From assembly GCA_903874275.1 (NCBI GenBank), contig CAIQRS010000027.1:1-32000 (forward strand): a DNA stretch of 32,000 bases. The letters run 5' to 3'. The notes beneath the pieces were generated by a model, which saw only the letters and a program-made list of their open reading frames with translations, was not told the DNA's origin and made no database searches. Below, in pieces: positions 2,090 through 22,400 of this stretch. The translations under genes were made by a program, and so were the position numbers. This DNA comes from an uncultured Anaeromyxobacter sp. (lineage in GTDB: Bacteria > Myxococcota > Myxococcia > Myxococcales > Anaeromyxobacteraceae). How positions within the stretch are numbered: position 1 is the first letter of the stretch; every line of letters starts with the position of its first letter.

Positions 2090-3181
2090 TCACCACCGGA
2101 GGAGTACCATCTCCGCGCAGAATCCGGGCCCCATGGCGACGACCAGCCCAAGATCCCCGGGCCTGGGCTCGCCCGAATCGAGGAGGTCGCCGAGCACGAA
2201 GAGCACCGAGGCCGAGGAGAGGTTTCCCACCTCCTCGAGCGACGTCCAGGAGCGGCGCAGCGCCCCGTCGGGCAGCGCCAGGGCGGACTGGAAGGCCTCG
2301 AGCACCCTGGGCCCCCCGGTGTGGGCGATCCAGTGGCGCACGTCCCCGCGCCCGAGCCCGTGCGACGCCAGGAACCCGTCCACGTCGCCGGCGATGTTCT
2401 CGCGGGTGATGCGGGGGACCTCGGCGGAGAGCACCACCTGGAAGCCGGTGTCGCGGAAGTCCCAGCCCATCACCCACTCGGTGTCGGGGTAGAAGGCGGC
2501 CCGGGTGGCCACCACGCGCGGGCGCGGGGAAGCTTTCACTTCTCGTGAACCCCCGGCCAGGACCACCGCCGCCGCGCCGTCGCCGAAGATCCCCGAGGCC
2601 ACCGCGTTCGCCACCGAGAGGTCGTCGCGCTGCAGGGTGAGCGAGCAGAGCTCCACCGAGAGGAGGACCCCGACCCCTCCCGGAGAGCTGGACATGAGAT
2701 CGGAGAGGCGCGCCAGGCCGGCGGCGCCGGCCACGCAGCCCAGCCCGAAGATGGGAAGCCGCTTCACGTCACGCCGCAACCCGAGCCGGTTCACCAGCTT
2801 GGCGTCGATGGAGGGCGTTGCCAGGCCGGTGACGGTCACGAAGACGAGCTGGTCCACGTCGGCCGGCCGGAGCCCGGCGTCGTCGAGGGCCCGCATCACC
2901 GCCTCGGCGCCCAGCTCCTCGGCCACCCGGATCCAGGCGTCGTTCGACTTCTTGAAGGTGTCGAGGGGCGGGTAGGCGGCGAGCGGCAGGGCGAGGTGGC
3001 GCCCCTTCACCTTGACCGCCCGGTGCAGCTCCTCGAGCCGGTCGGCGTTGAAGTGCTGCGCGGCCCAGTGGGCGCGGAGTGCCGCGGTCAGGGTCTCCTG
3101 GTCGGCGTAGTTCCCGGGGAGGGCGCGACCCATGGAGAGGACCACTGGCCGTGCTTCGCTCGTCCTGGATGGGTCGTTCAC
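2090..3181 (-). CDS. Type III polyketide synthase (chalcone/stilbene synthase superfamily)
   Basis: 363 aa. All three catalytic-triad contexts are present: [11 protein letters not shown] (Cys), [13 protein letters not shown] (His) and [13 protein letters not shown] (Asn). GTG start at 3181. Confidence 0.92.
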
Positions 3182-3246
3182 CCTCGACCCCTAATGGCCC
3201 GGGACGGCACTTGCCATGCATGCCCGAGGTCTTACGCTTCCGGGAT

Positions 3247-5883
<2,637 letters not shown>

Positions 5884-12835: not shown

Positions 12836-13777
12836 ATGGGTGGTGACTTGCAAGATTGGCGCGTCCTCCTGTGCGCGGCGCTCCTCCTTGGCTTCACCGG
12901 CAGCCCGGCGCCGGCCGTCGCGCAGGCTCCCCGGAACCTGTTTCCCGTGAAGCCGGTGGTCTGGGACCCCGCGCCGCCGGACCGCAGCCTCGGCATCGGC
13001 AACGGCCGTTTCTTCTCCTACGCCCTCCCGCCGGGCTGGCGCGTCGGGGAGGACGGCCAGTACGCCTTGACCCTTGCCGCGCCGGACAGCAGGGCCTTCA
13101 CGGTGATGGTGGGCAACGCGGGGCTCCCCCTCGACCATCCGTGCGGCCGGTTCGTCCACGACAAGCTCTCGGCACTGAAGCCGGAGAACCTCCAGATCGG
13201 GCAGCCCCGGAAGGCGGCTCCGATCGCCGGCTTCGCCCACGCCTACCAGTTCGACGTCACCTACTCCATCCGCGGCGTGGCCTGCCGCGGGACCGTCAAG
13301 TGTCACGTCGCCCCGGCCTACGACACCGTGGTGATGGCGATGACCGCGGCACTTTCCGAGGCCAGCCAGTGGCCGGGGTACGCTTCCTGGCTGCCCCTGG
13401 TCGCCGAGCAGATCTCCGCCACCAGTGGCGCCGCCTTCGGAAGGCGCGGGATCATGGCCCAGAATCTGAAGGACTCCGCCGCGTACGCCGAGGCGGCTCG
13501 CCAGTACCGCGACTGGTCCCGGCGCACCTGGCAGCAGGTGGCCGACGACAGGAACGCCTCCCAGGACCGCAAGGCGTACCAGGTGCGGGAGAACCTCGGC
13601 GCCGTCCAGACCTACGTGAATCCCTTCGGGACGGGCGCGCCGGTGCAGCTGCCCACGACCTACAAGTACTACTGGAGCGACGACCAGGGCGGCTTTCTCG
13701 GGAGCAACGACCCGAGCGCCAACCCCAACCTGGGCTCCACCACCGAATGGAAACGGATGGCGCCGTACAATCCGTGA
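12836..13777 (+). CDS. Secreted hypothetical protein (paralogue of the next gene)
   Basis: ATG 12836 preceded by GGGGAGG. Signal peptide ...VLLCAALLLGFTGSPAPAVAQA. 313 aa with no recognisable catalytic motif. Its domain and tail organisation is shared with 13799..15268. Confidence 0.8.
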   Translation: MGGDLQDWRVLLCAALLLGFTGSPAPAVAQAPRNLFPVKPVVWDPAPPDRSLGIGNGRFFSYALPPGWRVGEDGQYALTLAAPDSRAFTVMVGNAGLPLDHPCGRFVHDKLSALKPENLQIGQPRKAAPIAGFAHAYQFDVTYSIRGVACRGTVKCHVAPAYDTVVMAMTAALSEASQWPGYASWLPLVAEQISATSGAAFGRRGIMAQNLKDSAAYAEAARQYRDWSRRTWQQVADDRNASQDRKAYQVRENLGAVQTYVNPFGTGAPVQLPTTYKYYWSDDQGGFLGSNDPSANPNLGSTTEWKRMAPYNP

Positions 13778-13798
13778 AGTCGGCAGGGGGGAGCAGCC

Positions 13799-15268
13799 AT
13801 GTCGAAGTCCATCGGTTTCACCTTGCTCTTCCGGTCGATGGTCGGCGGCGCACTCGCGGCAGCGGTCGCACTTCCGCTGGCGGCCTGCTCGTCGGGGCAG
13901 GCCGATGCGGCCCCGGCAGGATACGAGGTCGTCCGCGCCATCGACTCCGGCAAGGCGCTGTCCAGGCGCGTCCCGCAGGCCAAGACGGTTCGTGACGCCC
14001 TGCGAACGACCTTGGCGGATCTGGAACGGTACTTCGGCTCGAAGGTGCACCTGCGAGGAGCCTACGAGGACACCCGGGATCACCTGGCCGGCGGCGCCGG
14101 GTTCCAGGGGCAATTCGGGGGGCGGCCGATCCAGGGCATCATCTCCTGCCGGGTCGGCCCGGACGGCGCCTTCGTCGTCGTGGTCTATGCAAATGGCGAC
14201 GCGCCCCGGAGCGAATGGGCGCAGCTCCTCGCGGCCTCGCCCAGCGAGGGCTCCAGGCCGGATTCCCGGACCGCGGAGGCGGCCAGCTCCCCACCAGGGG
14301 CGGCGTCCTTGAAGCCCTACAAGTTCCCCGATGGAACCGGGATGATGGGCATCGCCGACGGCTGGCGCACCAGCGCCCAGTCGTGTGCCGGCCCGGTTCT
14401 GGTGCAGGGCCCAGCCGATCAGTCCGTCGGGATGGGACTCAGCTGGAGCGTGAGCACCCCCGATTCACTGGCGGTTCAGAACCATCGGCAGATGGTGGCG
14501 ACCGCGCGGCAGCTCGGCTCCCCGCCTCCCCGGTTCGAGATGCTGGTGGCGCCCTTCTCCGGGCCGCTGGATGCGATCAAGAACCTCGCGCCGCAGCTGA
14601 GCGAGATGGCGGCTCGCACGGGCGGACGGCCCTTCCAGATCGACAAGCCGGCTCTCGGTCAGGAGATGCGCCCGAGCGTCGCAGGCGGCAGGGCGGCGAT
14701 GGTCACCTACGGCTTGTCGGAGAAGGGTGCCGACGGGCGCGTCCGGCACTACCGGGCCGAGGCCTACCTCGAAACGAGCCCTCTCGGACAGGGAGCCTGG
14801 ATGATGCAGGGGGTCATCATCCGAGCCCCCGACGCCTCCTTCGAGCGCGACCTGCCGACGATGCGGGCGATGGTGTACTCGCTGAGGGAGGATGCCCAGG
14901 TCATCCAGCAGAAGACGCAGCAGGCCTTGAACGCCCAGAACCAGTGGTTCCAGGCGCAGCAGCAGGCTCATCGGCAGCAGGTCGAGGGGTTCGAGCGCCA
15001 GCAGCAGGCGCACCGGGAGGCGACGAAGGCCCGCGACCGACAGAACAAGGACTGGGAGAAGAACCAGAACGCGACGTCGCGAACGCACGACGACTACGAC
15101 GAGGTGCTCCGCGGTTACCGGACGGTCGAGGACACGCGCAGCGGGGTCAAGACCAGCGTCGATCTGGGAAACGTGGACGTCATCGTGGACAAGCTGAACG
15201 AGGCTGACCCCGGCCGGTATCGACAGATCCCCCTGCGCGACGAGATGAACCCCCTTCCCGGACGGTAG
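13799..15268 (+). CDS. Hypothetical lipoprotein with Gln-rich coiled-coil-like segment
   Basis: 489 aa. Lipobox LPLAAC|SS. Internal Gln-rich stretch QQKTQQALNAQNQWFQAQQQAHRQQVEGFERQQQAHRE. The C-terminal half resembles the preceding gene. Confidence 0.8.
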   Translation: MSKSIGFTLLFRSMVGGALAAAVALPLAACSSGQADAAPAGYEVVRAIDSGKALSRRVPQAKTVRDALRTTLADLERYFGSKVHLRGAYEDTRDHLAGGAGFQGQFGGRPIQGIISCRVGPDGAFVVVVYANGDAPRSEWAQLLAASPSEGSRPDSRTAEAASSPPGAASLKPYKFPDGTGMMGIADGWRTSAQSCAGPVLVQGPADQSVGMGLSWSVSTPDSLAVQNHRQMVATARQLGSPPPRFEMLVAPFSGPLDAIKNLAPQLSEMAARTGGRPFQIDKPALGQEMRPSVAGGRAAMVTYGLSEKGADGRVRHYRAEAYLETSPLGQGAWMMQGVIIRAPDASFERDLPTMRAMVYSLREDAQVIQQKTQQALNAQNQWFQAQQQAHRQQVEGFERQQQAHREATKARDRQNKDWEKNQNATSRTHDDYDEVLRGYRTVEDTRSGVKTSVDLGNVDVIVDKLNEADPGRYRQIPLRDEMNPLPGR

Positions 15269-15282
15269 GCGCGGCCTGGCGT

Positions 15283-16602
15283 CTACTCCGGACGCAGCTG
15301 CAGGCGGGCCTGCGACTTGAACGTGGGCTGCAGGTCGGTCCCGTCCGCGCCGGAGACCCGTCCGAACTCCAGGTCCACGGTGAGCAGGTGGGGTGGCTTT
15401 CCCAGCAAGAGGTGGCCGGAGATTCGAACGTAGGCCTGGCCGTCGCTGGCCCGGCCGGTGCGCATCCCCTCGAAGGAGACCCGGTCGCCGTCGCGCGTGG
15501 CCCGCACGGTCATGGGAAAGAAGCCGGGTGACTGGTTCGCGGGCGCGAAGGTGAACGAGTCCCGCGGTCCCAGGTACCACTTCGCCTCGCCCACGAGGGA
15601 GCGGCCGTGCCCGCGAGCCTCGGGACTTCCGAGGTACTGGTTGAAGGCCAGGACCTCGGCCGTCGCGAAGGCGAGGCGCTGCTCGGCGGGTTTCGGGGGA
15701 GCGTGGTCCGTGCGCGCGGGCTCGGCCGTGGCCACCGCCGCGGGCGGCGAATGGGGCACCTTCGCCGGCGCCGGGGCCCTCGACGGGGGCGAGCCGTTCC
15801 CGGGCGGCGGGCGGGCGGGGGCCTTCACCGGGGATGGCTTCGGCGGGGCGACGGCCGCCGAGGGAACGGCCACCGGCGAGGCATGAGCGGTGGATTCAGG
15901 GGGCGCGGCAGGCGCGACGGGCCCGCCCGACTTCCCCACCGGAATCGTCGCTGCAGGAGGCGCGGTGGCTGCGGGGGGAGCGTCGGGTCTTCCCTCCCGG
16001 AGGGTCAGGACCGCGACGACGCCCCCGATCGTGGCGAGAATGGCGGCTGCCGCGAGCCCGACCCAGAGCCGCCTGCGAGAACCCGACCCGGACTGGCCGA
16101 CCCTTCTCTTCAGGGTCTCGACGAGCTGCGAGACGTTGTGGTCCCAGTCCTGCTCGGTGAGCTGGAGGCATTGCCGGCTCAGCAGGCCGTTCAGCGACTC
16201 GGGGAGGTCGTCCTCGGCAGGGAGCGCCGCTCCTCCGACGAGCACGGGGATCACGAGGACGTCCGGGCGGCGCAGCGCCGTCCCGATCTCCAGGGCCACC
16301 ACGTCCCGCGGGTCCTTGAGCCGGCGCCTCCCCGCGGCGTCCGTCACCCCCGCCCACGCCTTCCCGATGAGGACCAGGACCACCTTGCAGCTCCCCACCG
16401 TGTGCTCGATCTCCTCCAGGTAGTTCACGCCTGGTGCGAGCCCCTTCACGTCCATGAAGACCTGGCCGGGGAAGGCGCGCTCCAGCGCGTAGAGCAGCGC
16501 GCGGGCCTGGCCGCCGCTGTCCTCGCGCCGGTAGTTGACGAAGATGGCGCGGCTGGGATCGGAACGCTCCCCGTGCCTCGCCTCCCCGGTCCCCTGGCTC
16601 AC
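15283..16602 (-). CDS. Membrane-anchored TIR-domain protein: N-terminal TIR, one TM helix, Pro/Ala-rich spacer, C-terminal domain of unknown fold
   Basis: The last 439 codons of track ORF 15283..17697. GTG 16602-16600 overlaps the RyR gene stop (GTGA), with GGGAAGGGAGGGG upstream. TIR_2-like motifs: IFVNYRREDS, VFMDV, CKVVLVLIGKAW, DVVALEIGTAL, VIPVLVGGAALP. The TM helix follows RRR (LWVGLAAAAILATIGGVVAVLTL). A Pro/Ala-rich segment of ~100 aa follows, then a ~130-aa beta-rich tail. Confidence 0.88.
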   Translation of the reverse strand: MSQGTGEARHGERSDPSRAIFVNYRREDSGGQARALLYALERAFPGQVFMDVKGLAPGVNYLEEIEHTVGSCKVVLVLIGKAWAGVTDAAGRRRLKDPRDVVALEIGTALRRPDVLVIPVLVGGAALPAEDDLPESLNGLLSRQCLQLTEQDWDHNVSQLVETLKRRVGQSGSGSRRRLWVGLAAAAILATIGGVVAVLTLREGRPDAPPAATAPPAATIPVGKSGGPVAPAAPPESTAHASPVAVPSAAVAPPKPSPVKAPARPPPGNGSPPSRAPAPAKVPHSPPAAVATAEPARTDHAPPKPAEQRLAFATAEVLAFNQYLGSPEARGHGRSLVGEAKWYLGPRDSFTFAPANQSPGFFPMTVRATRDGDRVSFEGMRTGRASDGQAYVRISGHLLLGKPPHLLTVDLEFGRVSGADGTDLQPTFKSQARLQLRPE

Positions 16603-16913
16603 CGCGCCCCTCCCTTCCCGGACGGACCGTGGATGCCGAAGCCGAGCGCACAGAGGGCCTTCAGGGTCTCGCCCACCGCGATGCGGTCGTACTTCTTCTC
16701 CTCCTCGGGGAGTTCCTCGTAGGGCACCAGGCTGGGGTGGAGCCTGGCCGCCTCGTCGCGGTGCGGACCCCACCGCCACCCGTCCGAGAGCCGCTCCAGG
16801 GCCCAGGCCTCGTGGGCGTTGCGGGCGAGCAGTTCCAGGACGGCCGCCACCTCGGCGGGCAACCGCACCGTCGCGGTGTCCAGGGGTGCGGGTTGATATC
16901 GTTTGGACGGCAT
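16599..16913 (-). CDS. Small RyR (ryanodine-receptor repeat, Pfam RyR-like) domain protein
   Basis: 104 aa from ATG 16913 (the track start 16925 is a TTG). LLARNAHEAWALERLSDGWRWGPHRDEAARLHPSLVPYEELPEEEKKYDRIAVGETLKALCALGFGI matches the bacterial RyR-domain pattern (HE.W....GW.yG......k.HP.lvPy.eLpeeeK.yDR). Confidence 0.85.
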   Translation of the reverse strand: MPSKRYQPAPLDTATVRLPAEVAAVLELLARNAHEAWALERLSDGWRWGPHRDEAARLHPSLVPYEELPEEEKKYDRIAVGETLKALCALGFGIHGPSGKGGAR

Positions 16914-16982
16914 GACCGGACCCAACTCTCGCGCACCTCTGGTGGAATTTCACAATGCCTCGTTCATGGTAGCTTCGAGGGA

Positions 16983-16992
16983 CCCATATGGG
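16983..16992. repeat. Perfect 10-bp palindrome CCCATATGGG in the divergent intergenic region
   Basis: Read directly from the sequence. It lies in the 136-bp, visibly AT-richer spacer between the RyR/TIR and OMP/SLATT operons. Function unknown (candidate operator). Confidence 0.3.
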
Positions 16993-17049
16993 CGGGGACG
17001 AGGGGGCAGCGATCGGGCACTCTCGGGCTCCATCGACGGGGGGCGCACG

Positions 17050-17739
17050 ATGAAGCGACTTTGCGTGGTGTTGTTCCTGGCCGTGGGGATCCTCTCCGCG
17101 GGGCGCGCGTCGGCGCAACAGGGGGTTGACCCGTTCCTCAAGTCGGCGCCCCCGGGGCCACCCGAGAGCGGCGTCTCCATCGGGTTGAGCGTCGGGTACG
17201 CGCTGCCCATGGGCAACGTCAGCGGCTCCCAGCCGATGAGCGACCTCTTCAGCGGGGCCCTCCCGCTCCAGCTCGACGTGGGGTGGCGCTTCACGCCGAA
17301 TCTCTACGCGGGAGCCTTCTTCCAGTACTCGTTCGGCTTCCTCAGCTCCTTGCAGAACGCGGCGTGCACCGCAAACGGCTGGACGAGCTGCACTGGTGGT
17401 GACATGCAGTTCGGCCTGGACTTCGTCTACACCTTCCTGCCCTACGCGACGTTCGCGCCCTACGTGGGGCTGGGCGTGGGCTGGGAGATCGCGACCCTCA
17501 GCTACTCGGGCTCGAACCAGTCCATCTCGGAGTCGGTCTCGGGATTCCAGTTCGCGCGCATCCTCGTGGGCGGGGACTTCCGGGTGGGGTCGGCCTTCCG
17601 GGTCGGGCCCTTCGTGAACTTCTCCTTGGGCCAGTTCAGCAGCCTGAGCTCCCCGGACCCGGCCGCCAACGGCACGATCGCCAACAAGGCGCTCCACGAG
17701 TGGCTCCAGTTCGGGATCAAGGGCACCGTCGACCTGTGA
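17050..17739 (+). CDS. Small outer-membrane beta-barrel protein (OmpW/OMP_b-brl-like)
   Basis: ATG 17050, 229 aa. Signal peptide MKRLCVVLFLAVGILSAGRASA|QQ. Alternating amphipathic strands (LQLDVGWRFTP, MQFGLDFVYTF, YVGLGVGWEI, FRVGPFVNFSLG, WLQFGIKGTVDL). One Cys pair, CTANGWTSC. Confidence 0.8.
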   Translation: MKRLCVVLFLAVGILSAGRASAQQGVDPFLKSAPPGPPESGVSIGLSVGYALPMGNVSGSQPMSDLFSGALPLQLDVGWRFTPNLYAGAFFQYSFGFLSSLQNAACTANGWTSCTGGDMQFGLDFVYTFLPYATFAPYVGLGVGWEIATLSYSGSNQSISESVSGFQFARILVGGDFRVGSAFRVGPFVNFSLGQFSSLSSPDPAANGTIANKALHEWLQFGIKGTVDL

Positions 17740-18656
17740 CCGGGGGCGTGCAGACCGGGCCCCCCTCGTTCGACGCCTACCCCGGCCTGTACGTCGCGGC
17801 CGACGCCGCCGCGGTCTCGCTGCAGCGCCAGCACTTCCTGGGCGAGGCGGTGCTTCTGGTCCTGAACCCGCTCAGCGCGGCGCTGGTCCTGGCCATCGCG
17901 CTCGGCGTGGTGCGCTTGCAGTTCGCCGTGCTCACCGCCTTCTCCACGACGCTGCTCGTCCTCGTGCTCTGGGTGGTGCGTGCCAGCCGATGGCAGAACC
18001 AGTGGTACGACTGCCGCAGCGCCGCGGAGGACCTGAAGCGGATCACCTGGCGCTACCTCATGCAGCTCGATCCGTTCCCGCCCGGCGCGCCTGCTCCGGA
18101 CGCGAGCTTCGTCCGCGCCATGGAGGAGGCGGTGCGCGACCATCCCGACGTCCTTCGCGCGCTGGGCAGGCGCGCCCACGTCCTCGCGCCTCCGGTCACC
18201 CCCGAGATGCAGCGGATCCGGCGGGCCAGCGCGTCCGAGCGCGCCGAGATCTACCTCGCCTCCCGCCTTCGCCCCGAGGCGGCCTGGTACGCAGCCAAGG
18301 CGGAGCGCTTCGCCGCCGCGGACCGGAGGTGGTTCGCCGGACTGATCCTCGTGCAGGTCGCGGCGGTGGTCTCGGCCATCGTCCTGGCAGCGCGGGTCCA
18401 GGGAGGGGGAGCCGGGAGCGCCGCCGCGGACAGCTGGGTCCCCATGCTCACGGCCTTCGGGACCGCGCTCATGGGCTGGCAGCGCTCCAAGCGCCATGCG
18501 GACCTGACGATGTCCTACTCCGCCACGGCGCAGAAGCTGGCCGGATTCGAGTCCAGCCGGCCGCCGCTCGCGGAGCCGGCCGCCTACCTTTCCTGGGTCG
18601 AGCGGGTGGAGGCGACGCTCGCACAGGAGCACGAGGCCTGGCGGCACATGACGTAG
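17736..18656 (+). CDS. Tandem 2TM+2TM SLATT/DUF4231-like membrane protein (predicted membrane effector family)
   Basis: GTG 17736 overlaps the OMP stop (GTGA), 306 aa. Hydrophobic pair 1 (AVLLVLNPLSAALVLAIALGVV / FAVLTAFSTTLLVLVLWVV) is followed by WQNQWYDCRSAAEDLKRITWRY. The second unit has RLRPEAAWYAAKAERFAAADRRW, then two more helices (FAGLILVQVAAVVSAIVLAA / WVPMLTAFGTALMGW). These are the patterns I associate with SLATT and DUF4231 families. Confidence 0.75.
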   Translation: MTGGVQTGPPSFDAYPGLYVAADAAAVSLQRQHFLGEAVLLVLNPLSAALVLAIALGVVRLQFAVLTAFSTTLLVLVLWVVRASRWQNQWYDCRSAAEDLKRITWRYLMQLDPFPPGAPAPDASFVRAMEEAVRDHPDVLRALGRRAHVLAPPVTPEMQRIRRASASERAEIYLASRLRPEAAWYAAKAERFAAADRRWFAGLILVQVAAVVSAIVLAARVQGGGAGSAAADSWVPMLTAFGTALMGWQRSKRHADLTMSYSATAQKLAGFESSRPPLAEPAAYLSWVERVEATLAQEHEAWRHMT

Positions 18657-18678: not shown

Positions 18679-19377
18679 TCAGAAGAGCCGGTATCCGGCG
18701 AAGGCCTGGACCATGAACGCGAAGGCCGCCGAGGAGTTCTTGGCCGTGGGGATCATCACGCCGAAGCGGGTGTTCAGGCCGATGGCGATGTTCGGATCGT
18801 CGAAGTGGTACTCGACGTAGGGGCCTGCCCAGGGGCCGATGACGAAGTTCACCGGGTCGGTGACGTTGAGCGCCAGGTTGAGATCGAGTCCGCCGCCGAT
18901 CTCGAGGTTGTGCGCCACCGGGAAGCCTCCCACCACGCCCGCCGGGAAGGTGAAGGCGAACAGGGTCTTGCTCGTGTCGTAGCAGAAGCTGGTTCCGGCC
19001 ACGCAGGTGCTGCCCGAGAAGTAGAGCCGGACCCCCGGATCGACGTGGAACACGAGGTTGAACTTTTCCCCCTTGATGAACTGGAAGCGCAGCGGCGCCC
19101 AGAGCCCGAGGCCGAACTGGGTGTAGGTCGTGCCCTCGAGGCCGTAGAGGAGGCCGAAGCGGATGCCCATGTCGGACGCCTTGCCCAGGTTGAACGTGTA
19201 GCCGAAGTTGACGTTCGGCCAGCCAGCCTGGACGTCCTCGAATGGCTTGCCGGTATTGATCTCGCTGCCGACGACGCTCCAGTCCCCCAGCCCCTTGCCA
19301 TGCTGGGAACGCTGGGCGTGCACGGCGACGGGGGCGATGGCGAGTGCGACGGCGACGGCCAGCATCGGGAATCTCAT
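18679..19377 (-). CDS. Small outer-membrane beta-barrel protein
   Basis: ATG 19377 with GGAGGAG upstream, 232 aa. Signal peptide MRFPMLAVAVALAIAPVAVHA|Q. Canonical C-terminal beta-signal ...AFAGYRLF. One Cys pair, CVAGTSFC. Confidence 0.85.
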   Translation of the reverse strand: MRFPMLAVAVALAIAPVAVHAQRSQHGKGLGDWSVVGSEINTGKPFEDVQAGWPNVNFGYTFNLGKASDMGIRFGLLYGLEGTTYTQFGLGLWAPLRFQFIKGEKFNLVFHVDPGVRLYFSGSTCVAGTSFCYDTSKTLFAFTFPAGVVGGFPVAHNLEIGGGLDLNLALNVTDPVNFVIGPWAGPYVEYHFDDPNIAIGLNTRFGVMIPTAKNSSAAFAFMVQAFAGYRLF

Positions 19378-19425
19378 CGGTTGCTCCTCCGGGTTGGGGC
19401 CATGGACGGACAGCGAGCCCAATGG

Positions 19426-19532: not shown

Positions 19533-20273
19533 TCACGGCGCTCCTCGAGGCGGCGAGGCGCCGCCGCACCTCATCCGCCCCTCCAGCGCCTTCGCGTTCA
19601 GCGGGTCGCGCCGGAGGGCATCGTCGTAGGCCTTGATGGCGAGCTTGCAGTTGCCCTTGGCCCGCTCCTGGTCGCCCATCTTCACGTAGCGCGCCGCGCT
19701 CCCGCCACCCACCTCGTTGGGAAAAGCGGCCCGCTCCGGGTTCACGATGCGGTCCACCGCCGCCTGGTCGAGCTCGCCGAGCAGGAGGCGCACCCGCGCC
19801 CGGACGATCTCGCAGGAACGCAGCCGCTGGTAGGGCTCGACCGCGTGGACCTTCCCCTTCGCGTCCACGATGACGATGACCGGGTGCTGCCGCAGCTCCA
19901 GCCGGCCGTAGACCCGGTCCCCCTCGTCGAGCAGGATCGGCGACTTCACCCCCGACCCGGCCACCATCGCCTGGACCTGGTCGCGCGGCGCGCCCGCCGA
20001 CACCACGCCCACCGTGTGGACCGGCTTGCCGGCGAAGAGGGGCTCGCACTGGGCGAGTCTTCGCAGGGTGTCCGCCGAACGATCCTGCTCGGGGCGGAAG
20101 AAGACCACCAGGTTGACCTGCCCCGGGACGATCAGCGCGTGGCGGCCGCCCGCCAGGGTCGCGAGCTCGGCGCCCTCCACGAGGGTCCCGGCCTCGACGT
20201 GGCCCCTGGCCGCGGCCGGCGCCCCGAGCAGCGCGACCGCCAGCGCGACCAGCAAGCCAGCATTCGCCGTCAT
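19533..20273 (-). CDS. Periplasmic thioredoxin/redoxin-fold (no catalytic Cys) plus TPR protein, paralogue 2
   Basis: The last 246 codons of track ORF 19533..22196. ATG 20273 overlaps the upstream stop (ATGA). Signal peptide MTANAGLLVALAVALLGAPAAA. The redoxin-like core VNLVVFFRPEQDRSADTL has no CxxC or Cys at the catalytic position. C-terminal TPR-like KLAIKAYDDALRRDPLNAKAL. Confidence 0.75.
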   Translation of the reverse strand: MTANAGLLVALAVALLGAPAAARGHVEAGTLVEGAELATLAGGRHALIVPGQVNLVVFFRPEQDRSADTLRRLAQCEPLFAGKPVHTVGVVSAGAPRDQVQAMVAGSGVKSPILLDEGDRVYGRLELRQHPVIVIVDAKGKVHAVEPYQRLRSCEIVRARVRLLLGELDQAAVDRIVNPERAAFPNEVGGGSAARYVKMGDQERAKGNCKLAIKAYDDALRRDPLNAKALEGRMRCGGASPPRGAP

Positions 20274-21118
20274 CTCTTCCCCTCGCAGCCACGCCTGCCC
20301 TCGGCGGCCGATGCGCTCCCCGGGTCGATCTTCAGCGCCTGGTCGAAGGCGGGCAGCGCCTGGCGGCACTTCCCCTGCCCGGCCAGCGCCTGGCCCATGA
20401 GGACGTGGGCCGCGGCCAGCCCGGGCTCCTTCTCCAGCGCGATCCGCGCCTGCTCGGCGGCCTTGGACCACTGCCTGGATTCCAGGAACATCTCGCCGAG
20501 CTTCACGCGCCGCCCGGCCACGGCGCCCGGCACCGCGTTGGGGAAGAGGGCCTTCTGCGGCTGGTCCACCCGCTCGACCGCCGCCAGGTCCACCTCGTGG
20601 AGCGCGTGGCGGATCCGCACCCGGATCATGTCGCAGTAGTTGATCCGGTGGTACGGCACGTAGTCGAGCAGCGCCCCCTTTTCGTCGGCGATGCCGATCA
20701 CCGGGTGCAACCGCACGCCCAGCTTGCCGTAGAGCGCGTCCCCCTCGTCGAGCAGCACCGGCATCTGGATGCCGGACGCGATCACGAACGCCCTCAGCTC
20801 GTCGCGCGCGTGGCTCCCGGAGACGACCGCCACCCAGCGCACCGGCTTGGCCGTGAACTCCTTCTCGCAGACGGCCATCGCCTTCAGCGTGTCGAGCGAC
20901 CGATCGTGGCCGGGCCGGAAGAAGACCAGGACGTTGGCGAGCGCCTTCCCGGACAGGAGCATCTCCCGGCGTCCGTCGAGGGTGGCCAGTTCCACGTTCT
21001 CGACCCGCTGCCCCACCTCGACGTTGGCGAAGGCCGAGCCGGTGAGCGGCCAGAGCACGCCGGAGAGCGCCCCCCCGAGGACCCCCAGGATCAGCCGTCG
21101 CCTCGCCTGCTCGCCCAT
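20270..21118 (-). CDS. Periplasmic thioredoxin/redoxin-fold (no catalytic Cys) plus TPR protein, paralogue 1
   Basis: 282 aa with a signal peptide. The core NVLVFFRPGHDRSLDTLKAM...PVLLDEGDALYGKLGVRLHPV is collinear with the downstream paralogue. C-terminal TPR-like repeats (AAAHVLMGQALAGQGKCRQALPAFDQALKIDP). Confidence 0.78.
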   Translation of the reverse strand: MGEQARRRLILGVLGGALSGVLWPLTGSAFANVEVGQRVENVELATLDGRREMLLSGKALANVLVFFRPGHDRSLDTLKAMAVCEKEFTAKPVRWVAVVSGSHARDELRAFVIASGIQMPVLLDEGDALYGKLGVRLHPVIGIADEKGALLDYVPYHRINYCDMIRVRIRHALHEVDLAAVERVDQPQKALFPNAVPGAVAGRRVKLGEMFLESRQWSKAAEQARIALEKEPGLAAAHVLMGQALAGQGKCRQALPAFDQALKIDPGSASAAEGRRGCEGKR

Positions 21119-21124
21119 CCGCCG

Positions 21125-22180
21125 CTACCTCTCGTAGCTCTTGGTGTCGTGGCAGGTCCGGGCGCACTGCCCGCCGGTGGGGGTCTTCAGGTAGTTGATC
21201 TTGAGGACCCAGCCGGTCGGGCCGTAGGGGACGCCGTCGCGGACGTGTCGGGGTTGCCGGGAGGCGTGCACCTCGTGGCAGGCCCGGCAGGCGCGGCCGC
21301 GGTCGGCCTTGTTCACGTGCAGGAAGTGCAGGTTGCGGGAGCCGTCGCGGAAGTTGGTGAGGGTGCGCGTCTCCGGCTCGCTCACCACCTTCTCGTTGTG
21401 GCAACTGAAGCACAGCGCGTAGTTCTTGCGGTCGTACGCCGAGTAGAATGTGGCCGGGTACTCGGCGATCAGCAGGCGGAAGTTCTCGCCGCCGTGCGTC
21501 CGGTGGCAGGCGGAGCAGTCCTTGGCCTGGACCGGCGCGTGCTTGACCTTGTTCTCGTCCAGCCACTTCTTGTAGTTCGTGAGGACGACACCCTCGTGGT
21601 CCTTCATGTCGTCCACGGCGTGGCAGCTCACGCACTGGTCGTAGGGCAGCTGGATGAGCAGCTTCTCCACCGAGGTTCCGTGGGGGTTGTGGCAGTTGGC
21701 GCACTTCGCGCCCTGGTCCAGGGCGCCGTGCTTCACCTTCGACGTCTCGGCGATCTCCTTGACCTGCCGGTGGCAGTCCTTGCAGCCCGTGGCCAGCTCG
21801 GTGTGGAGGAGCCCTCGCTCCCGGGAGTTGTGCGCGTTGTGGCAGTTGAGGCAGCTCTCCACCGCCGGCGGGTGCTGGTACGGGCGCTTCATGATCTCCT
21901 GGAACTCGTCGTGGCAGGAGTAGCAGAGCGCGTTGCCGCTGGTCGTGACCGGCCCGGGCTTCCTTGGATCCGCGCTGGCGTGGCAGATGGAGCAATCGCC
22001 CGCCTCGTAGGGCGCGTGGCTCCAGGCCGTCTTCTCCCTGGCGGGCAGGGGGCCCGGGTTCACCTTGAAGGTGTGCTTGCGGAGCGCCTTCGGCTCCGTG
22101 GACGGCGCGCCCGCCGCCGGGCCAGGCAGCGCCAGCGCCGCGGCGCAGGCCACCGACACGAGGATCTTCGCCCACGCCAT
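21125..22180 (-). CDS. Multihaem c-type cytochrome (9 CxxCH plus 1 CxxxCH)
   Basis: ATG 22180 with GGAGGA 8 nt upstream, 351 aa. Signal peptide MAWAKILVSVACAAALALPGPAAGA. Haem motifs: CSICH, CYSCH, CLNCH, CKDCH, CANCH, CVSCH, CSACH, CFSCH, CRACH and CARTCH. Several are of the CxxCHxxH type. Confidence 0.93.
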   Translation of the reverse strand: MAWAKILVSVACAAALALPGPAAGAPSTEPKALRKHTFKVNPGPLPAREKTAWSHAPYEAGDCSICHASADPRKPGPVTTSGNALCYSCHDEFQEIMKRPYQHPPAVESCLNCHNAHNSRERGLLHTELATGCKDCHRQVKEIAETSKVKHGALDQGAKCANCHNPHGTSVEKLLIQLPYDQCVSCHAVDDMKDHEGVVLTNYKKWLDENKVKHAPVQAKDCSACHRTHGGENFRLLIAEYPATFYSAYDRKNYALCFSCHNEKVVSEPETRTLTNFRDGSRNLHFLHVNKADRGRACRACHEVHASRQPRHVRDGVPYGPTGWVLKINYLKTPTGGQCARTCHDTKSYER

Positions 22181-22400
22181 TCGTGCCGTCCTCCACGCGT
22201 CGAGACGCGACCAGGGTTGCATGGCAGCTTTCTCACGGTCCGCACGGCCCGGCAAGGTTCCGTGGCCGATCGGGCGCGAGAAAGTTCACTGTAGGTCTAA
22301 GTGGGAACGGGTGGGCGCGGAGGACCCGGGCCATTCGACCGACAGTAAATGCTCGCTGACCGCCTTGCTACGTCCTTCCGCACGAACGTAGGATGGCGCC

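Follow-up and report, generated by a model that had tools for sequence, protein, structure and literature searches.

Does a bacterial protein made of a single RyR repeat and encoded directly beside a TIR gene take part in a signalling connection like that of cyclic ADP-ribose (cADPR) and the ryanodine receptor in animals? The question arises from a 32,000-nt stretch of DNA from an uncultured Anaeromyxobacter sp. (hereafter the window), and it touches a long-standing debate on the action of cADPR on ryanodine receptors, its existence as well as its site. On sequence grounds, the RyR protein of the window probably binds an ADP-ribose signal made by TIR, which would amount to a bacterial form of the connection between cADPR and RyR known from animals.

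The RyR protein and its predicted pocket

The RyR gene (16599..16913, minus strand; ATG at 16913, stop codon TGA at 16601-16599) encodes a 104-aa protein that was matched by the Pfam family RyR (PF02026) with an E value of 1.1e-30 and 106.1 bits against a cutoff of 27.4. Since the match spans aa 6-94, corresponding to positions 1-89 of the 91 in the profile, the protein is essentially one RyR repeat, as a sequence-only reading of this DNA had proposed, and the AF2 model (pLDDT 91.3), which has the RyR-repeat fold, bore the proposal out. Orthologues with 67-89% identity certify that the gene is real. Foldseek comparison of the model gave 6UAG/3NRT as the best matches (TM 0.84-0.93, rmsd ~1 Å, 45% identity), and human RyR3 Repeat12 was the next structural match.

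The predicted ligand-pocket residues are H34 (minus-strand codon 16814-16812), W37 (16805-16803), R52, H59 (16739-16737) and D76 (16688-16686), among which H34, W37, H59 and D76 are invariant in 28 homologues. These four residues align with H129, W132, H154 and D171 of the phage protein RyR Tad, and their spacing equals that of H75, W78, H100 and D117 in RyDEP. RyDEP (mycobacteriophage DyoEdafos gp78) and RyR Tad (Pectobacterium phage CB1 gp68) are anti-Thoeris proteins with RyR/R12 domains, and two preprints of May-June 2026 reported binding of 2'cADPR, 3'cADPR and canonical cADPR by RyR-domain proteins of phages, with nanomolar affinity for the cADPR isomers, and hydrolysis of these molecules by one of the proteins; no activity other than sequestration and hydrolysis has been demonstrated for any stand-alone RyR protein (PMC13232231; 10.64898/2026.06.04.730250). 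The former statement that no function had been established for bacterial RyR-domain proteins is thus outdated for the phage members (PMC13232231; 10.64898/2026.06.04.730250). Judging from the dimers of 3NRT/6UAG, RyDEP and RyR Tad, the window protein would be a homodimer as well, its two copies making up the two-fold symmetric domain.

Coupling to a membrane-anchored TIR protein

The RyR stop codon overlaps the GTG start of the TIR gene (16602-16600) as GTGA, and the SD-like GGGAAGGGAGGGG at 16619-16607 lies 5-17 nt upstream of this start, completing a translational-coupling junction at 16599..16619 on the minus strand. The overlap, which had been noticed from the letters, was recovered as an identical 4-nt RyR/TIR overlap in independent gene calls on the same contig or orthologous contigs. 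Co-expression at a similar ratio had been deduced from it; the overlap backs coupled expression but does not fix the RyR:TIR ratio.

The TIR gene (15283..16602, minus strand) encodes a 439-aa protein with 17 full-length or partial orthologues (alignment A5), in which Pfam TIR_2 was found at aa 20-161 (E=8e-9, 36.5 bits versus a cutoff of 28). The best PDB sequence match of the TIR domain (~aa 17-165, 16108..16554) is the SARM1 TIR (E=3.6e-4), with 'DVVALEIGTAL' of the window aligned to 'DWVHKEIVTAL' of SARM1. This alignment places the putative catalytic Glu, E105 (codon 16290-16288), opposite the SARM1 Glu that we take to be the catalytic E642, and E105 is invariant in 13 TIR orthologues of alignment A5. 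A single transmembrane (TM) helix at aa 181-199 (16006..16062; hydropathy scan, score 2.43) is preceded by RRR, so the C-terminus of the protein is predicted to be periplasmic, and it is followed by a Pro/Ala-rich linker that varies across the orthologues. The C-terminal extracytoplasmic domain (CTD, aa 308-439, 15286..15681) is conserved and consists of all-beta structure with one helix in the AF2 model (pLDDT 90). Its sequence shares 58% identity with the C-terminal part of the Ser/Thr kinase P0075. It had no Pfam match and no PDB fold match at E<=1e-3, the fold search giving only avidin-like barrels (TM<0.45, E>5e-3). The 'TIR enzyme' of the sequence-only reading holds for the presence of a TIR_2 domain, but the protein is membrane-anchored with an extracytoplasmic domain and is not soluble.

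A divergent SLATT operon completes the unit

The RyR-TIR pair is real, but the unit is larger than the pair first described, as a divergent SLATT operon had been missed. Its four genes are arranged as a pair of divergent operons, each translationally coupled: RyR→TIR-TM-periplasmic domain on one side and OMP-barrel-like→tandem SLATT on the other. The operons share a 136-nt intergenic region (16914..17049) as the presumed control region. The first gene of the plus-strand operon (17050..17739) encodes a secreted outer-membrane beta-barrel-like protein of 229 aa with the signal peptide MKRLCVVLFLAVGILSAGRASA and a Pfam OMP_b-brl match at E=1.2e-5, which is below the curated cutoff. It is followed by the gene of a 306-aa tandem SLATT protein (17736..18656, plus strand), the GTG start of which overlaps the OMP stop as GTGA (17736-17739). 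Pfam identified SLATT_3 (E=1.1e-24) and SLATT_1 (E=5e-19), families of the SMODS and SLOG-associating 2TM effectors, in this protein, and a hydropathy scan gave two TM segments, aa 38-56 and 200-218, one per SLATT half. The SLATT gene lies ~1.1 kb from the TIR gene.

The four-gene module occurs in at least six Anaeromyxobacteraceae-type contigs with differing flanking genes; the OMP-like protein is conserved in every window-type module, and SLATT is co-inherited with TIR in all of them. No sigma-70 consensus promoter was found in the 136-nt intergenic region, consensus scans of the module for promoters and terminators gave nothing above shuffled expectation, and the window contains no tRNA or Rfam elements. 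In one metagenome-assembled genome (MAG; L092), TIR, OMP and SLATT are intact, while the RyR gene is disrupted by an inverted 5' RyR segment. An invertible promoter or phase variation was rejected as the explanation, since no inverted repeats flank the segment in L092 or in the window, and we read the inversion as an isolated disruption or an assembly error.

RyR genes are linked to TIR and SLATT genes across phyla

In total, 81 non-redundant loci encoding close RyR relatives were surveyed, with neighbours scored within 4 kb. TIR was found in 40 of them and SLATT in 49, and the loci divide into 28 with both, 21 with SLATT only, 12 with TIR only and 20 with neither. The recurrent RyR-TIR adjacency that had been named as a check of the original proposal thus exists, and the 40 loci extend over eight phyla and several gene orders. 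The RyR-TIR-SLATT triad itself takes five gene orders in Myxococcota, Acidobacteriota, Planctomycetota, Gemmatimonadota and Binatota, and its TIR proteins are non-orthologous. Because Acidobacteriota MAGs supply most of the 81 loci, the counts lack phylogenetic independence.

As a distance control, 52 loci with full 8-kb flanks were divided into successive 2-kb bins. The TIR ORFs numbered 23, 5, 2 and 0 per bin with increasing distance from RyR, falling to zero past 6 kb, and the SLATT ORFs numbered 36, 0, 0 and 0, with none past 2 kb. SLATT rather than TIR is the commonest and most tightly linked partner of the RyR clade (49/81), with the stand-alone RyR gene typically 4 nt upstream of SLATT or overlapping it, and these RyR-adjacent SLATT proteins are homologous to that of the window (hhalign probability 96.8%, E=3e-10; Pfam SLATT_1 in seven of eight members). 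In the window, the gene with which RyR is coupled is TIR, not SLATT. The 21 loci with RyR and SLATT and no nearby TIR indicate that the ligand need not be made by TIR. The distant TIR homologues P0077 and P0091 have neither RyR nor SLATT in their neighbourhood, which indicates that only certain lineages of TIR take part in the link.

Cellular RyR domains also occur covalently fused to outputs, including an Ion_trans K+ channel (L078:1121-2236), TrkA_N membrane proteins and a RelA_SpoT protein. In six further loci (L015, L049, L063, L074, L081 and L088), RyR is fused with TPR-S and Guanylate_cyc and adjoins TIR genes. An N-terminal domain 'X', present in 629-aa SLATT proteins and in RyR-cyclase fusions, had no Pfam or PDB sequence match; our impression, which we take as an assumption, is that it is SLOG-like. 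The SLATT proteins of cluster 22 have an extra N-terminal domain of their own, which could be the sensor of SLATT.

A proposed receiver for a TIR-made signal

The best reading is that the RyR dimer is the host receiver, or possibly a buffer, of the TIR signal. In its complete form, to which we tentatively give slightly less than an even chance, the four genes would together make up a single Thoeris-like module for TIR signalling, based at the membrane, with the RyR dimer as the receiver controlling the SLATT pore. The observations on the module concern gene anatomy, conserved residues and gene linkage, and we infer the first three and the fifth of the following steps. The TIR-TM-CTD protein would sense an envelope or periplasmic event via its CTD, possibly together with the OMP-barrel-like protein, and its cytoplasmic SARM1-like TIR domain (E105) would turn NAD+ into a cyclic-ADP-ribose-type signal. 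Third, the RyR homodimer would bind the nucleotide in the pocket of H34, W37, R52, H59 and D76, and fourth, it would serve as receiver subunit and activate the tandem SLATT pore in the inner membrane, the opening of which may lead to membrane depolarisation and to abortive infection or cell death. Fifth, if the H34/D76 dyad were catalytic as in RyDEP, RyR would in addition remove the signal and so return the system to its resting state.

The receiver model is supported by the identification of RyR, TIR_2 and SLATT_3+SLATT_1 by Pfam, the GTGA coupling of both operons and the recurrence of the module, as well as by the survey, in which the triad accounts for 28 of 81 loci and linkage declines steeply with distance. 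The covalent fusion of cellular RyR domains to outputs argues for a sensor role. A cADPR-type ligand is supported by the alignment of the invariant pocket residues with the residues of RyDEP and RyR Tad that bind or cleave 2'/3'cADPR and cADPR. In addition, type VII Thoeris, described in December 2025, consists of the ThsB TIR and the ThsH SLATT and uses canonical cADPR as its signal, and SARM1 makes cADPR in animals according to the same preprint (Yirmiya et al. bioRxiv 10.64898/2025.12.03.692087); such a ligand is therefore further supported by the combination of TIR and SLATT and by the window TIR being most similar to SARM1.

The receiver model is weakened by the fact that validated type VII Thoeris functions without any RyR protein, with a ThsH SLATT for which binding of cADPR is predicted (10.64898/2025.12.03.692087), by the dissimilarity of the window TIR to validated type VII ThsB TIRs, by the 21 RyR-SLATT loci that lack a nearby TIR and by the phylogenetic dependence of the survey counts. 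Three further points weaken it and at the same time favour a role as host buffer or off-switch: RyR in the window is coupled to the signal generator instead of SLATT, sequestration and glycosidic cleavage of cADPR isomers are so far the only activities of stand-alone RyR proteins, and L092 tolerates the loss of RyR while keeping its TIR, OMP and SLATT. As such a buffer, the RyR dimer would sequester the TIR product as a sponge or hydrolyse it as an H34/D76 glycosidase, providing a threshold and a reset while SLATT senses the signal directly, and it would do for Thoeris what ring nucleases do for type III CRISPR. The conserved catalytic-dyad positions of the window RyR, the predicted cADPR binding of ThsH and the possible N-terminal sensor of cluster 22 SLATT agree with this role. 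A pure buffer, however, leaves unexplained both the RyR fusions to channels and cyclases and the RyR-SLATT pairs of the 21 loci without a nearby generator, and non-catalytic sponges and animal RyR conserve the dyad residues just as well (PMC13232231; 10.64898/2026.06.04.730250). We regard the buffer as rather unlikely, though a serious contender. Binding, buffering and relay would not be separable as modes of RyR action on the present sequence-level evidence.

It is improbable, in our estimation, that RyR senses a general adenine nucleotide (the level of ATP, ADP or NAD+) or binds TIR directly, gating TIR or SLATT by metabolic state. Human RyR3 Repeat12, the close structural match, was crystallised with AMP-PCP or ADP, and the Repeat12 domain has been proposed as a metabolic sensor in the literature; RyR-SLATT pairs without TIR and RyR fusions to TrkA_N, which is of the NAD-binding type, fit this as well. 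However, the strong distance-dependent enrichment of TIR beside RyR points to a TIR-linked ligand, and phage RyR proteins bind cADPR isomers with nanomolar affinity.

The anti-Thoeris function of phage RyR proteins raises the idea that the window gene is itself an anti-defence gene, like RyDEP or RyR Tad, of a phage or mobile element that lies beside TIR by accident. No phage genes were found around the locus, the surroundings of which are chromosomal housekeeping genes with even GC content, and only two RyR relatives were found in 2.9 million viral contigs versus 222 in genomes. Phage RyR proteins are distant matches (tblastn E>=0.01, two uncultured contigs excepted), and the window protein is much closer to animal R12 repeat 1 and to the Bacteroides thetaiotaomicron RyR, with A1 profile scores of 98 bits for RyR2 repeat 1 and 137 bits for 3NRT. 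A phage or anti-defence origin was rejected on the grounds of chromosomal context, rarity in viral contigs and weak phage similarity, and the accident is made highly improbable, too, by the translational coupling and co-inheritance of RyR with the TIR gene. Equally far-fetched is adjacency by chance or hitch-hiking, for although 20 of the 81 loci have neither partner and some RyR genes adjoin housekeeping genes (DeaD, for example), the triad persists across phyla in five gene orders and with TIR proteins that are not orthologous, the counts drop steeply with distance and the genes are joined by 4-nt overlaps.

Wider implications

A broader joint reading, which we put forward as speculation and consider doubtful, is that cellular RyR proteins are native bacterial receptors of TIR-made cyclic ADP-ribose signals that gate membrane conductances once the signal is bound, acting in trans on SLATT pores and in cis on K+ channels or TrkA_N proteins. 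The animal cADPR-to-ryanodine-receptor axis would then have its ancestry in an immune module of bacteria made up of TIR, RyR and a pore, and the phage proteins RyDEP and RyR Tad would be copies of the host receiver that phages had captured. The cognate TIRs would, as one element of the same reading, be Toll-like in topology, with the sensor outside the cytoplasm, the TIR inside it and one TM helix in between. The window locus and ~60 related loci encode a host RyR protein genetically linked to a TIR enzyme and/or a membrane pore, and they offer a simple, reconstitutable three- or four-gene system for asking if an RyR domain is a physiological receiver or regulator of cADPR. The same module bears on the origin of the phage sponges and on the trigger of a membrane-anchored TIR with Toll-like topology.

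Comparison with known systems

In the literature searched, no host-encoded RyR protein in a TIR system and no RyR component of any Thoeris type was found described, and the Aravind-group papers PMC9503650 and PMC7159879 do not mention RyR. The closest solved structure is the 'putative ryanodine receptor' of B. thetaiotaomicron (3NRT, 6UAG, 6UAM and 6UG4), likewise a stand-alone single repeat, which is homodimeric with open and closed forms and has PDB titles that give no function or partner. Bacteroidales RyR relatives in the survey adjoin TIR genes (L033 and L079) or DeaD (L023 and L035) rather than SLATT. Ring nucleases of type III CRISPR are host-encoded small proteins that degrade the cyclic nucleotide messenger of their own system, thereby setting a threshold or resetting it; they would resemble the window RyR, by analogy only, if it were a buffer, and they have an unrelated fold and a different messenger.

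RyDEP and RyR Tad share with the window protein PF02026, a small single repeat forming dimers (inferred for the window protein) and His/Trp/His/Asp at equivalent pocket positions, and cADPR isomers and cADPR are the expected ligand class. In contrast to the phage proteins, the window RyR is host-chromosomal, inside a TIR/SLATT module and coupled to TIR, and its role would be pro-signalling or regulatory instead of counter-defence. The animal RyR Repeat12 (R12) is alike in its fold, in ~45-50% identity of its repeat 1, in the nucleotide/drug pocket residues and in the association with a membrane ion-conducting protein. It is, however, a tandem repeat in a 5000-aa channel, whereas the window protein is a stand-alone single repeat that would need to homodimerize, and the partner in the window is a SLATT pore instead of a Ca2+ channel with six TM segments; a fusion of Ion_trans with RyR is nevertheless found in bacteria (L078).

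Type VII Thoeris is a two-gene operon with a soluble ThsB-type TIR, different from the four genes in two divergent operons of the window, which add the RyR and OMP-like proteins, a tandem SLATT_3+SLATT_1 and a SARM1/TIR_2-like TIR that is membrane-anchored with an extracytoplasmic domain. Membership of the window TIR in the type VII ThsB clusters is not supported, as BLASTP against three type VII TIR domains of Table S1 gave a best E value of 1.1; the PADLOC ThsB match was limited to 25 bits over 60 aa. Both systems encode together a TIR with a (putative) catalytic Glu and a SLATT membrane effector, and they presumably share the logic that an ADPR-type signal made by TIR opens or assembles the SLATT pore.

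A single RyR repeat in a four-gene module

The RyR gene lies on the minus strand (ATG at 16913, TGA at 16601-16599) as an ORF of 104 aa, and one RyR repeat fills nearly the whole protein (Pfam PF02026, E = 1.1e-30, 106 bits against a cutoff of 27.4). The AlphaFold2 model (pLDDT 91.3; alignment input of 28 homologues) superposes on the stand-alone RyR protein of Bacteroides thetaiotaomicron annotated as 'putative ryanodine receptor' (3NRT/6UAG; TM 0.84-0.93, rmsd ~1 A, 45% identity), as well as on Repeat12 of human RyR3 crystallized with dantrolene and AMP-PCP. The description in the sequence-only reading, essentially one RyR repeat, is confirmed by both Pfam and the model, and the protein clearly belongs to the RyR/R12 family. 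Aligned with the binding residues of the phage protein RyR Tad are H34, W37, R52, H59 and D76, with H34, W37, H59 and D76 invariant across the 28 aligned homologues.

The RyR stop codon overlaps the GTG start of the TIR gene as GTGA (16602-16599, minus strand), with GGGAAGGGAGGGG preceding the GTG, and the identical 4-nt overlap is present in independent gene calls for this contig and orthologous contigs. The overlap recognized earlier is thereby verified by sequence and gene calls; of the co-expression at a similar ratio deduced from it, coupled expression is supported, but no particular RyR:TIR ratio.

The locus comprises four genes, where two had been seen. A divergent intergenic region of 136 nt separates the RyR-TIR operon from a plus-strand operon encoding a secreted 229-aa protein resembling an outer-membrane beta-barrel (17050-17739; Pfam OMP_b-brl match below threshold) and a 306-aa tandem SLATT protein (17736-18656; SLATT_3 E = 1.1e-24, SLATT_1 E = 5e-19), the two also coupled by a GTGA overlap. 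The flanking genes are of the housekeeping kind (menaquinone synthesis, multihaem cytochromes, M16 peptidase, polyprenyl synthase), and the window around the module showed neither phage genes nor tRNAs, nor any GC anomaly. The same four genes with other flanks occur in Anaeromyxobacteraceae-type contigs (L001/L012, L010, L011, L097 and the P0061 contig), so the module behaves as a cassette.

Three conserved hypothetical proteins nearby, of 313 and 489 aa (within 12836-15268, plus strand) and 247 aa (18679-19422, minus strand), gave no Pfam match, and in other genomes they do not belong to the module; the 489-aa protein contains a TM or signal segment and ends in a coiled, Q-rich region, and the 247-aa protein is secreted. 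Further along (19533-22255, minus strand), a multihaem c-type cytochrome (376 aa, many CXXCH motifs) is encoded with two paralogous proteins, thioredoxin-like with TPR repeats by eye (database TPR matches faint or weak), a cluster consistent with an Anaeromyxobacter-type metal-respiring host.

In one Anaeromyxobacteraceae MAG (GCA_035543235, L092:4540-5010), the OMP/SLATT and TIR genes are arranged as in the window and the RyR gene is broken: the codons of about aa 8-31 (PRPIDTSAVALPAEVTRVAERLAR) are inverted onto the opposite strand, with the codons of aa 33-103 and the GTGA junction to TIR intact. No flanking inverted repeats were found at the inverted segment, and the break is either genuine or an assembly error.

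A membrane-anchored TIR protein

The TIR gene encodes a 439-aa protein with a TIR_2 domain (Pfam E = 8e-9, above cutoff), divided into a TIR domain, a TM helix with linker, and a C-terminal domain. The best sequence match of the TIR domain (~aa 17-165) among solved structures is SARM1, whose 'DWVHKEIVTAL' aligns with 'DVVALEIGTAL' of the window. The Glu of the SARM1 motif is the catalytic E642, which puts the window's E105 in the catalytic position; all 13 aligned orthologues conserve this Glu. The residues RRR stand ahead of the single TM helix (aa 181-199), and a variable Pro/Ala-rich linker connects the helix to a conserved C-terminal domain of 130 aa (15286-15681, minus strand) predicted to face the periplasm. 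Its model has a beta-rich fold (pLDDT 90), for which structure search found no significant PDB match. The domain shares 58% identity with the C-terminal end of Ser/Thr kinases from Anaeromyxobacteraceae (716-753 aa; P0073-P0076), making it a swappable sensor-type module, one extracytoplasmic unit common to TIR and kinase signalling heads.

A TM helix follows the TIR domain in 35 of the 44 TIR proteins encoded beside RyR genes (loci L001-L089), giving a predicted Toll-like topology of cytoplasmic TIR, one TM and large extracytoplasmic region despite non-orthologous TIR lineages. A distant homologue of the window TIR (P0077, 37% identity; L093:2282-6272) overlaps the end of two consecutive T6SS Tle1-like lipase genes; the available sequence, which stops ~200 nt past the TIR gene, holds no RyR or SLATT gene near it.

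Recurrent neighbours of the RyR gene

A scan with the RyR alignment of one genome per GTDB species yielded 222 relatives, of which the best 80, together with further loci, made up 81 non-redundant loci whose neighbours were assigned by ORF clustering and iterative HMMs. Both TIR and SLATT lay within 4 kb of RyR in 28 loci, SLATT only in 21, TIR only in 12 and neither in 20. The RyR-TIR adjacency that the sequence-only reading had proposed to survey, and whose absence it held against its idea, is thus recurrent, with TIR nearby in 28 + 12 of the 81 loci. In 52 loci with full 8-kb flanks, used as an internal distance control, successive 2-kb bins outward from RyR contained 23, 5, 2 and 0 TIR ORFs and 36, 0, 0 and 0 SLATT ORFs. 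The ~370-aa RyR-adjacent proteins are true tandem SLATTs, as certified by hhalign against the window-type SLATT (probability 96.8%, E = 3e-10, 274 columns) and by SLATT_1 matches in 7 of 8 group members. No partner of this RyR clade is more frequent or more closely linked than SLATT, whose gene usually lies 4 nt from RyR or overlaps it.

The triad occurs in five gene orders (a slash separates divergent genes): the window type, SLATT<-OMP<-/->RyR->TIR; TIR<-/->RyR->SLATT, in ~19 Acidobacteriota and Binatota loci; TIR->RyR->SLATT, in Planctomycetota (L045, L053); RyR->SLATT->TIR (L016, L056, L066, L025, L028); and SLATT<-/->RyR<-TIR (L071). The TIR partners are mutually non-orthologous, the window TIR and an acidobacterial one sharing 31% identity over 68 aa. 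Acidobacteriota MAGs supply most of the loci, which makes the counts non-independent; the variety of gene orders, phyla and TIR families carries more weight as evidence.

RyR domains in other settings

RyR domains of the same kind are fused to output domains in cellular proteins. A Brocadiaceae MAG encodes a 371-aa Ion_trans/Ion_trans_2 K+ channel (Pfam; TTVGYGD filter) with a C-terminal RyR (L078:1121-2236, plus strand), followed by a TrkA_N-RyRx2 protein (2456-4267); TM-TrkA_N-RyRx2 proteins are found in L007, L018, L019, L034, L069 and L078. An 876-aa protein (L089:4411-7041, minus strand) joins an N-terminal RelA_SpoT nucleotide pyrophosphokinase to a C-terminal RyR and also has a weak SLOG (LSDAT_prok) match. 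In Verrucomicrobiota and Acidobacteriota, genes for RyR-TPR-S-X-Guanylate_cyc proteins of ~730-800 aa, carrying a class III nucleotide cyclase (L015:7494-9776, L088:8001-10265, L081:7746-10100, L074:4219-6405, L049:7881-10283, L063:513-2831), adjoin TIR or TIR-WD40 genes and may form a TIR-signal-to-cyclic-nucleotide relay.

Domain X of these fusions, without a Pfam or PDB match, is shared (E ~1e-6) with proteins of 621-686 aa (L042:8291-10180 and 9 similar loci, cluster 22; L073:5891-7951) that carry it N-terminally (motifs G-H, A-x-G-x-D, LP[FY], WDG and T) to a C-terminal tandem SLATT and whose genes overlap or directly follow the RyR stop codon. TIR is absent within 4 kb in 9 of these 11 loci, lying ~280 nt away in L059 and ~4.2 kb away in L073. 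Stand-alone RyR genes also occur upstream of Metallophos (calcineurin-like phosphoesterase) and/or PQQ-type beta-propeller genes (L033:6816-10122, L085:8478-10070, L044:8404-11010), with a TIR-TM gene upstream overlapping the RyR start in L033, which looks like another recurring partner set. In L027, a stand-alone RyR gene stands after two TIR genes and before a TrkA_N protein gene.

The RyR family includes at least 7790 clusters at E<=1e-10, the best matches almost all of 94-104 aa, and the clade is essentially cellular: a search of 2.9 million viral contigs gave 2 loci. These two (IMG/VR contigs, L095/L096:3998-4282; 49% identity) have no TIR or SLATT match among their neighbours, one flanking ORF resembling a DNA methyltransferase by eye, a setting that fits a phage anti-defence role, unlike the host loci.

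Possible roles of the RyR protein

Beside the established gene anatomy, conserved catalytic and pocket residues and conserved RyR linkage with SLATT and TIR, a mechanism can be proposed in which the membrane TIR would be triggered from outside the cytoplasm and make a cADPR-type molecule, which an RyR dimer would bind, with control of the SLATT pore as the outcome. RyR as receiver or adaptor is tentatively favoured on the grounds that cellular proteins join RyR to output domains, that SLATT is the partner to which the RyR gene is most tightly coupled, and that some loci keep a RyR-SLATT pair with no TIR close by.

The leading alternative, that the host encodes a buffer or glycosidase to set a threshold, is possible if rather doubtful. 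It agrees with the only demonstrated biochemistry, that of phage anti-Thoeris proteins: mycobacteriophage RyDEP is a PF02026 homodimer and inverting glycosidase, and other phage RyR homologues are nanomolar sponges (PMC13232231, dated 29 May 2026), and RyR Tad (phage CB1 gp68) has a Kd of 43 nM for 3'cADPR and binds 2'cADPR and canonical cADPR below 1 uM, via H129/W132, K147/H154 and K170/D171 (10.64898/2026.06.04.730250). It also suits the coupling of RyR to TIR in the window, the prediction that the SLATT protein ThsH of type VII Thoeris binds cADPR itself, and the L092 MAG, with RyR disrupted and the other three genes intact. Receiver and buffer roles are compatible, not exclusive. That RyR senses ATP, ADP or NAD+, or regulates TIR directly, is improbable; a phage anti-defence gene, in an essentially cellular clade, and chance adjacency to TIR/SLATT, beside the fall-off with distance, are both very improbable. 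The broader proposal, in which the RyR domains of bacteria natively receive cADPR, gate membrane conductances and gave rise to the animal cADPR-RyR axis, is speculative and on the unlikely side.

Comparison with known systems

Now that the phage work has been published, a nucleotide-signal role for the RyR domain, the central idea of the sequence-only reading, has a precedent; in host systems, where it is open to direct test, the literature searched gave no description of it. Neither RyR preprint (PMC13232231; 10.64898/2026.06.04.730250) discusses host-encoded RyR genes in TIR operons, and further literature searches gave nothing. A RyDEP- or RyR Tad-type phage protein was rejected as the identity of the window RyR.

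Type VII Thoeris is defined by a TIR and a SLATT effector with canonical cADPR as signal; its description (Yirmiya et al., 10.64898/2025.12.03.692087) covers only two-gene operons and mentions RyR nowhere in text or tables. The module would work in a similar way but differs in both architecture and TIR lineage. It is most aptly described as a TIR-SLATT signalling system in which the host encodes an RyR-domain component and the TIR is anchored in the membrane with a Toll-like topology.
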